From: Escherichia phage vB_Eco_J-01
Direction: 5' to 3' (one strand)
Sequence record: PQ438393.1
DNA: 64,000 bases
A model generated the notes under the pieces. That model worked only from the letters and a program-made list of their open reading frames with translations. It had not been told where the DNA came from and ran no database searches. Positions 40,882 through 41,757 of the stretch are shown here, in pieces. Numbering within the stretch: the first letter of the stretch is position 1; the number at the start of each line of letters is the position of its first letter. The position numbers were made by a program, and so were the translations under genes.

Positions 40882-41211
40882 CTAATTAGAAATTATTCCT
40901 TCGCTTTGTAATGTTTTAATATAGTTTTGCAAACTGATAAGTTTTATCCTATCTTTTTCCCACAAAGCGTTGTTTAAAGTTTGATTATCAACTACCTCTG
41001 ATCTTGTAACTCCTTTCTTTATTTGATTAGGAGTGTATAGAACAGGCGTAGATGGTTTCTCCATACTAACAGAATCAGGGGCTTTTATTTGTTGTGTTGC
41101 TACAGCTTTACACTGCTCAATCAGTAGCGGCTGGGAAGCTGTTGTTGATGATGCGCAACCCGTCATCATTAGGGCTAAAACAAGACATAGCGCCAGAAGA
41201 TGTTTTCGCAT
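40882..41211 (-). CDS. o-spanin (outer-membrane lipoprotein)
   Basis: Signal peptide MRKHLLALCLVLALMMTGC with lipobox Cys; 3' end of upstream i-spanin-like gene overlaps its 5' end. Confidence 0.55.
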   Translation of the reverse strand: MRKHLLALCLVLALMMTGCASSTTASQPLLIEQCKAVATQQIKAPDSVSMEKPSTPVLYTPNQIKKGVTRSEVVDNQTLNNALWEKDRIKLISLQNYIKTLQSEGIISN

Positions 41212-41548
41212 AATCTATTCTCTCTTGTGTTATGTTATTACTCTTCTTATCCAATTGTGTAAGAAGATCATTTTTTTCTTTCGTTAATGAATGAATTTTT
41301 TCATTCAGTTTAGATCTTTCTGAATCTGCTTTTGCTTGTAAAATATCGAATTGCTGTTTTGCTTTAATTTGGTTTTGTTGTAATATTTGTTCTTGTTTAG
41401 CAACACCTGCGTTGTAGCCTTGTGCATACACGTCATCGTGTAATTTGTTTAAACCAACATACAAACCACCAAATAGTGCTATAATAAGAACAAAATACCT
41501 AACCCATTTATTCTTCAGTAGGTTTATTAACATAATCAGTATCATCAT
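41117..41548 (-). CDS. i-spanin (N-terminal TM helix + coiled-coil periplasmic domain); start ambiguous
   Basis: N-terminal hydrophobic helix VRYFVLIIALFGGLYVGL then Gln/Lys-rich coiled coil; several in-frame Met starts (41548/41545/41533) without strong RBS. Confidence 0.5.
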   Translation of the reverse strand: MMILIMLINLLKNKWVRYFVLIIALFGGLYVGLNKLHDDVYAQGYNAGVAKQEQILQQNQIKAKQQFDILQAKADSERSKLNEKIHSLTKEKNDLLTQLDKKSNNITQERIDYAKTSSGAMSCFSPNDDGLRIINNSFPAATD

Positions 41549-41583
41549 CTTTAAATTTTACTTTAGGCAGATTTGGTGAATTA

Positions 41584-41757
41584 TTAACTATCTTCTTCAC
41601 TACCATCGGTTGTGCATTCTCCAAAATCTCCTTCCATTGTTCTTCTGTAATCATAGTCTAACTCTTCCTCCAGATCCCATTTACGCGAATAACTGTTCTT
41701 CTTATCTCTGTGATAAGAAGCCCTATTAAAATCGTGTTTAGCTACATAGTTTCTCAT
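41584..41757 (-). CDS. small acidic hypothetical protein (57 aa, not in ORF track)
   Basis: ATG at 41757 with AGGAGG 8 nt upstream; a second 48-aa ORF (41508..41654) overlaps in another frame. Confidence 0.35.
   Translation of the reverse strand: MRNYVAKHDFNRASYHRDKKNSYSRKWDLEEELDYDYRRTMEGDFGECTTDGSEEDS

Follow-up and report, generated by a model that had tools for sequence, protein, structure and literature searches.

A predicted overlapped spanin pair and two small conserved reading frames ahead of the terminase gene in the phi92-like Escherichia phage vB_Eco_J-01

Introduction

The closest described counterparts of the locus reported here, positions 40,882 to 41,757 of a 64,000-nucleotide (nt) stretch of Escherichia phage vB_Eco_J-01 (PQ438393.1; the whole stretch is called the window below), are the two-component spanins of phages phi92 and phAPEC8. 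Kongari et al. (2018; BMC Bioinformatics 19:326, PMC6139136) grouped these two phages in one family of i-spanins, the inner-membrane component, and one family of o-spanins, the outer-membrane lipoprotein. Their supplementary entry for phi92, marked 'ovl', gives 55669..56101 for the i-spanin (143 amino acids, aa) and 56006..56336 for the o-spanin (109 aa); the two genes overlap by 95 nt, and the coiled coil of the i-spanin spans residues 54-115 (PMC6139136). The pair that we describe has the same lengths and the same overlap, and we found no substantial difference from this family. We conclude that this virulent phi92-like myophage very probably has its two-component spanin encoded here, as an 'overlapped' gene pair, with an i-spanin that lacks a Shine-Dalgarno (SD) sequence and is most likely weakly translated, either by coupling to the upstream gene or in an SD-independent manner.

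Rz/Rz1 of phage lambda follows the same plan, with a type II inner-membrane protein that has a periplasmic coiled coil and, in the +1 frame, the gene of an outer-membrane lipoprotein. The mechanism is presumed to be shared as well, the membranes being fused after degradation of the wall. However, lambda Rz1 is fully embedded in Rz within an S-R-Rz/Rz1 cassette, whereas the o-spanin gene here extends 235 nt past the i-spanin gene and the pair precedes a terminase gene; no similarity to the lambda proteins was seen in Pfam or NCBIfam. PseT.3/PseT.2 of T4 likewise belong to a large virulent myophage and lie far from the holin (t) and endolysin (e) genes. The T4 o-spanin and the one described here are both relatively large with a predicted C-terminal helix (Kongari et al., Fig. 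8 legend), and the endolysin of the phi92-like group is a T4 lysozyme homologue. The T4 spanin genes are nevertheless 'separated' and not overlapped, T4 has two periplasmic cysteine linkages where one conserved cysteine per protein is found here, and no sequence similarity was detected between the two pairs. The spanin neighbourhood is the same as that of the rV5-like myophage LL12 (Microbiol Resour Announc 2019; PMC6658697), which carries TerL as gp64, the o-spanin as gp65 and the i-spanin as gp66, with the endolysin (gp90) elsewhere and no holin identified. The LL12 spanins belong to a different sequence family, and Kongari et al. count the rV5 group among the 'separated' pairs (PMC6139136).

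Results

An overlapped spanin pair ahead of the terminase gene

All genes of the spanin locus lie on the minus strand, and coordinates are those of the window. A megablast search with 40500..42300 returned 120 phage records, 47 of which covered at least 80% of the query with 97-99% identity; all 47 were phi92-like coliphages (Justusliebigvirus, Stephanstirmvirinae). In the direction of transcription the locus consists of terminators, a promoter-like element, gp116 (a member of the family DUF7230), gp117, the i-spanin, the o-spanin, TerL and the portal gene, an order kept across the Phapecoctavirus, Klebsiella and Citrobacter relatives. The four-gene block from gp116 to the o-spanin is flanked by TerL downstream and by gp115 and a tRNA array upstream. 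TerL (40873..38789) starts 8 nt past the o-spanin stop codon and is followed by the portal gene, and a consensus scan found no terminator between the block, TerL and the portal gene. The spanins would then be expressed as the leading genes of a packaging and structural operon, outside any lysis cassette.

Coding capacity was assessed on a five-lineage alignment (the window, Citrobacter phage Tr1, phAPEC8, phiWec181 and Klebsiella phage phi1_175008, with about 65-68% nucleotide identity). Synonymous and non-synonymous codon differences were counted in the three frames for each segment, and variable columns were counted by codon position. All four open reading frames (ORFs) exhibited a coding signature, and only in their own frame: the synonymous fraction reached 0.51 (gp116 N-terminus), 0.27 (i-spanin) and 0.47 (o-spanin), compared to 0.03-0.15 in non-coding frames. 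Judged from these alignments, the i-spanin, o-spanin, gp116 and gp117 ORFs are not chance ORFs.

The i-spanin gene (41117..41548, 143 aa when counted from the ATG at 41548) encodes a protein with one hydrophobic segment at aa 15-33, where the Kyte-Doolittle profile peaks at 1.84 in a 19-residue window. This N-terminal transmembrane domain (TMD), with a predicted type II topology (N-in/C-out), is conserved in 6 lineages. AlphaFold2 (AF2) returned an unbroken helix over aa 14-120, with a predicted local distance difference test (pLDDT) score above 90 at aa 40-110, and a disordered C-terminus bearing Cys123, which is invariant in the lineage alignment. A profile search of the PDB gave matches to coiled-coil proteins only. 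The o-spanin gene (40882..41211, 109 aa) encodes a predicted outer-membrane lipoprotein precursor, whose signal peptide has a hydrophobic core and closes in the lipobox LMMTG|C19 with Ala at position +2. The 6 lineages share G18, C19 and the periplasmic C34 without exception, position +2 is A, S, T or N, and the C-terminal helix contains the conserved motif NNxLWxxDRxxxxxLQxY. Each protein therefore has one conserved periplasmic cysteine (C123 in the i-spanin, C34 in the o-spanin) available for an intermolecular disulfide.

Read in the +1 frame, the o-spanin gene begins inside that of the i-spanin and ends beyond the i-spanin stop codon. In the resulting 95-nt dual-coding overlap (41117..41211) the i-spanin C-terminus and the o-spanin signal peptide are encoded together. 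The coding frames had synonymous fractions of 0.32 and 0.34 there, compared to 0.11 for the third frame, and 30 of 89 columns were variable, against 212 of 281 in the part coding for the i-spanin only, a low variation that is expected from dual coding. The codon counts indicate that both frames of the overlap are under purifying selection. Both proteins also match 'Rz-like spanin' profiles of PHROG, the i-spanin phrog_4297 (E=2.4e-40) and the o-spanin phrog_1267 (E=2e-20). Compared with phi92, the o-spanin shows 100% identity and the i-spanin about 97%. As far as sequence and structure models can tell, the pair displays all five architectural traits of an overlapped spanin (Summer et al. 2007; Kongari et al. 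2018). An initial annotation, made from the DNA letters, had proposed an i-spanin with an N-terminal TMD and a coiled coil, overlapping an o-spanin lipoprotein gene by 95 nt. Coordinates, TMD, AF2 helix and lipobox bear this out, the signal peptidase II site that it had named as a check is predicted, and the spanin identity agrees with both the PHROG assignments and the phi92 pair already listed by Kongari et al.

The spanin pair is accordingly an ordinary one that was already catalogued, in a position away from the other lysis genes that is documented in the phi92 group, and the finding itself has little biological weight. Its practical value lies in annotation. The i-spanin is gp118 in phi92, in whose record the o-spanin is unannotated; RefSeq labels the i-spanin 'Rz-like spanin', and both spanins are labelled in the BASEL record of phage PaulScherrer. 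The GenBank and RefSeq calls of the relatives are inconsistent: the o-spanin is either cut to 60 or 94 aa, and then devoid of the lipobox, or missing altogether, and the i-spanin may be shortened to 119 aa. Many records of the group carry such truncated or missing spanin calls and omit gp117, and several phages with faulty spanin annotation are phage-therapy candidates.

Translation start of the i-spanin

Three in-frame ATGs (41548, 41545 and 41533) could start the i-spanin. We estimated SD strength as the energy of the duplex with the anti-SD sequence, for which the background median in the window is -2.2 kcal/mol. Energies of -10.3, -9.3 and -10.2 kcal/mol were obtained for gp116, gp117 and TerL, respectively, and -4.7 kcal/mol for the o-spanin. 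The three i-spanin ATGs gave only -0.4 to -0.9 kcal/mol, weaker than the background median, and no SD sequence precedes any of them. The ambiguous start without a good ribosome-binding site, noted in the initial annotation, is thus a genuine property of the locus.

The i-spanin start codons are all contained in the final part of gp117, whose ORF overlaps that of the i-spanin by 41 nt, and in the lineages examined the i-spanin start always falls within the 3' end of the upstream ORF. Since both the lack of an SD sequence and the overlap with an upstream ORF are conserved, it is plausible from the sequence that i-spanin translation is coupled to that ORF. Given a start without SD inside the 3' end of gp117, translation of the i-spanin would most likely be weak and coupled to gp117, or else SD-independent on an A/U-rich leader. 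FBKp34 and KP13-16, deep-branching Klebsiella phages of the Stephanstirmvirinae, have no gp117: their loci (L021, 2293..3107, and L022, 1265..2079, respectively) have the order DUF7230, i-spanin, o-spanin, with a tRNA array between the spanins and TerL. In both phages the ORF that overlaps the i-spanin start, by 29 nt, is that of DUF7230, and the start is provided with a GAGG SD.

gp116 and gp117

Upstream of the spanins, the initial annotation had also pointed out two overlapping small hydrophilic ORFs, at 41584..41757 with an AGGAGG sequence and at 41508..41654, lying between the spanins and a terminator. Coordinates, grand average of hydropathy (GRAVY) values and the terminator hairpin all agree with this description, to which our comparisons add that both ORFs appear to be conserved genes and that gp116 belongs to DUF7230. 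gp116 (41584..41757, 57 aa) is preceded by the strong SD AGGAGG with an 8-nt spacer. Residues 2-26 match the Pfam family DUF7230 (PF23876) with 29.4 bits, above the gathering threshold of 27, and the protein falls in phrog_15229 (E=3e-38). The basic 25-aa N-terminal domain is coding-constrained, while the frame of the acidic tail is at background level. DUF7230 has the invariant motif M.N.V.K.D.N..S.H.D.K and is widespread in large myoviruses. Taken together, alignment and family membership identify gp116 as a genuine gene for a soluble protein. We found no papers on DUF7230, and its profile gave no match in the PDB at E up to 10. An ArfA-like ribosome-rescue role was rejected with an hhalign probability of 0.7%.

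The genomic context of DUF7230 bears on whether the small genes take part in lysis. In all Stephanstirmvirinae lineages examined the DUF7230 gene directly precedes the i-spanin, even in FBKp34 and KP13-16, where the spanins have left TerL; gp117, for its part, is under purifying selection as a protein and always overlaps the i-spanin start. These observations would fit gp116 and/or gp117 being lysis regulators, either a timing factor like T4 RIII or a controller of spanin dosage, within a four-gene lysis module. On the other hand, the DUF7230 gene adjoins NAMPT and tRNA genes in the Vequintavirinae (GAP31, KB57) and ndd in the T4-like phage Miro, so that the domain is not generally tied to lysis genes. 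Neither gp116 nor gp117 has a TMD or resembles a known lysis protein, family or structure, and the adjacency to the i-spanin could be plain synteny within one subfamily. We therefore regard a regulatory role as a tentative idea that is rather unlikely to hold. The more specific proposal that translation of gp117 delivers ribosomes to the SD-less i-spanin start, that its 34-aa N-terminal peptide sets spanin dosage or lysis timing, and that translation links the DUF7230 gene, gp117 and the spanins into one chained module is equally speculative, with the odds clearly against it. gp117 itself, an overlapping gene that is seldom annotated, is confined to the Stephanstirmvirinae.

gp117 (41508..41654, a 48-aa hydrophilic protein) is read in the +1 frame relative to gp116, which it overlaps by 71 nt, and has its own ATG and a purine-rich SD, GGAGGAAGAG, at 41662..41671. 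It is unannotated in most GenBank records, and the annotators of phi92 flagged it with 'weak Prodigal statistics'. It has no family match in PHROG or Pfam. tblastn against 50,697 phage records detected no homologue outside the Stephanstirmvirinae, only close relatives, and protein searches (a word index of 5.8 billion proteins and phmmer against 1.84 billion representatives) also found close relatives only. This near-absence from the databases and from most annotations would suit the view that gp117 is not a gene, and that it stays open and conserved because of the gp116 tail and the translation signals of the i-spanin. The substitution pattern argues otherwise. The ORF is open in 12 of 12 relatives examined, with the N-terminal 34 aa conserved, and its ATG is invariant although variation is seen at the preceding base, which is a first codon position of gp116. 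In the 35-nt stretch that belongs to gp117 only, variable columns amount to 11/11 at codon position 3, 6/11 at position 1 and 1/10 at position 2, and the synonymous fraction is 0.49 in the gp117 frame, compared to 0.01 and 0.13 in the others. Within the gp116/gp117 overlap the coding signature also belongs to gp117, with a synonymous fraction of 0.37 against 0.12; as the constraint lies on the gp117 frame there, the acidic tail of gp116 is itself only weakly constrained. That gp117 is no gene thus appears improbable. The comparative data indicate a genuine overlapping gene for a soluble protein, with purifying selection on the protein and not on a spacer alone. This evidence for a real, mostly unannotated gene over the i-spanin start is what is new here, and it is a modest addition.

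The structure of gp117 gave no further clue. AF2 run on the single sequence proposed two short helices (pLDDT 74.5), for which Foldseek found nothing in the PDB under E=4.7. The idea that gp117 is the frameshifted C-terminal half of a longer ancestral DUF7230 protein, as in GAP31, KB57 or FBKp34, was rejected (hhalign 0.1-0.4%).

Other lysis genes and function of the pair

A scan of the window ORFs revealed, apart from the spanins, no ORF with a TMD or a lysozyme domain within several kb on either side, in line with the initial annotation, which had found no holin or endolysin next to the pair; as LL12 and T4 illustrate, such a layout is not unusual. gp116 and gp117 have no hydrophobic segment (GRAVY -1.74 and -1.00, respectively) and, lacking a membrane segment, neither is a holin. 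According to the BASEL and RefSeq annotation the endolysin is a soluble protein of 166 aa, a T4 lysozyme homologue (PF00959), whose gene is located about 31 kb from the spanins on the other strand, beyond the window. A second, SleB-like hydrolase sits in the replication module. No holin is annotated in any record examined of the phi92-like group, and none of the small ORFs beside the endolysin or beside the second cell-wall hydrolase has a TMD. The product labelled 'hol-like chemotaxis' (phi92 gp094; window 53376..53696) was rejected as a holin, being a soluble coiled-coil protein without TMD. Dispersed lysis genes were also described in a phi92-like phage in the BME3 paper, and scattered lysis genes are normal for the group, as in T4.

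An 81-aa ORF at 15164..15409 (minus strand) displays two hydrophobic segments and a charged C-terminus. It falls in phrog_1322 ('membrane protein'), and its stop shares 1 nt with the start codon of a baseplate wedge gene. For the phi92-like group, the BME3 paper mentions a protein of 81 residues whose topology is that of a class II holin. The ORF at 15164..15409 is a candidate for the missing holin.

By analogy with what is established for lambda Rz/Rz1 and T4 PseT.3/PseT.2, the pair would act in four steps. The i-spanin would be anchored in the inner membrane by its N-terminal TMD, with the coiled coil extending into the periplasm, and the o-spanin, once lipidated at Cys19, would be directed to the outer membrane. 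Binding of the C-termini would then create a periplasm-spanning complex held by the peptidoglycan mesh. Once the T4-lysozyme-like endolysin had degraded the wall, the complexes would fuse the inner and outer membranes, in the last step of lysis.

Several points weigh against this assignment. No Pfam spanin family matched at E up to 10, with no similarity to lambda Rz/Rz1 or to LysB/LysC of P2, and the NCBIfam model P2_Rz1 gave E=0.18 and 12 bits, below its cut-off of 27. With 91 aa the mature o-spanin exceeds most others in size, and its 5 Pro do not make it proline-rich. The spanin function of the whole family is attributed by architecture, and our literature search found no experimental paper on the phi92-type spanin family. 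The missing match to the lambda and P2 families is usual for such a diverse protein class, and by analogy the pair would work like Rz/Rz1 while standing outside the Rz/Rz1 and LysB/LysC sequence families. Considering that its family is known from architecture, without sequence similarity to tested spanins, that it lies outside a lysis cassette and that the o-spanin periplasmic domain is unusually long, one could propose another envelope function for the membrane protein and the lipoprotein, for instance superinfection exclusion or receptor masking, as for the lipoproteins Llp and Cor. This proposal has to be set against the full overlapped-spanin architecture, namely a type II TMD followed by a coiled coil, a lipoprotein gene in the +1 frame and one conserved periplasmic cysteine in each protein. 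Moreover, no other spanin candidate is annotated in the phi92-like genomes examined, and the spanins of T4 and LL12 also stand apart from the other lysis genes. We consider another envelope function very improbable and retain the spanin assignment.

As to the second part of our reading, two further points count against coupling: the link between gp117 and the i-spanin is deduced from the layout alone, and the overlap of the two ORFs, 17 to 59 nt among lineages, is long for termination-reinitiation. Weak initiation, coupled or SD-independent, nevertheless accounts better for the start than a gp117-i-spanin fusion by +1 ribosomal frameshifting, which would explain the missing SD and for which the i-spanin frame is indeed +1 to gp117 with the ORFs overlapping in each gp117-bearing lineage, but which we rejected as extremely improbable: conservation within the locus is lowest in the overlap, which contains indels and in which the lineages have no slippery or stall motif in common, an in-frame i-spanin ATG is kept in each lineage, phAPEC8-type phages have a stop codon in the i-spanin frame directly before that ATG, and FBKp34 has an ordinary i-spanin SD without gp117.

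Upstream signals and neighbouring genes

Two conserved hairpins lie upstream of gp116. The intrinsic terminator at 41820..41848 (minus strand), found by folding and alignment, reads CCCCU-UU-CC-GAAA-GG-UU-AGGGG followed by U6 and is kept in all relatives. In tandem with it, the second hairpin at 41869..41883 (minus strand; GGGAAC-TTT-GTTCCC), detected in the alignment, is found directly past the gp115 stop codon and is flanked by polypyrimidine runs; its stem shows compensatory changes in the Phapecoctavirus, Klebsiella and Citrobacter relatives. The gp115/tRNA unit that lies upstream is closed by these tandem terminators. An element at 41779..41807 (minus strand), located between the terminator and gp116, combines TTGCTT, 18 nt and TGaTATGAT (an extended -10) and contains a TATATA motif. 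Across lineages it takes the form TTGC(A/T)., a spacer and TGATA(A/T)GAT, and we infer from this conservation that it is promoter-like. A consensus promoter and terminator scanner missed both this element and the terminator, the latter on account of its internal loop; folding and alignment revealed them. An Rfam scan of 40500..42400 gave no relevant match.

gp115 (41896..42186, minus strand) encodes an acidic protein of 96 aa with an AT-hook-like N-terminus, KRGRGRPT. Among the Stephanstirmvirinae loci examined, all but those of the FBKp34/KP13-16 lineage keep it ahead of the DUF7230 gene. Its sole match is phrog_3330 (function not assigned), and no relative was found in the PDB. The records examined annotate no small terminase subunit, for which gp115 is a candidate.

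TerL itself contains an insertion of 158 aa (40274..40747, minus strand; aa 43-200) that splits the Walker A motif as GGAAG | C...VTGN | SGKS. With a first Cys, a terminal Asn and a Ser at +1 it resembles a mini-intein; no Hint or intein model matched it. The Pfam Terminase_6N match in TerL begins at aa 201.

The tRNA array upstream of gp115 comprises 16 genes (42391..45136, minus strand). In phi92 the 42-aa ORF gp113, which carries the name 'rIII lysis inhibition accessory protein' in the records of relatives, is located between tRNA-Gln and tRNA-Gly. The gp113 ORF appears to be missing from the window, because only about 99 nt separate these two tRNA genes there. The rIII annotation of gp113 seems doubtful.

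Finally, four unannotated records deposited as 'Campylobacter phage' (MG065639, MG065645, MG065656 and MG065689; host Campylobacter jejuni) are 98.7% identical to the region. Either their host assignment is wrong or a coliphage was co-isolated, probably.

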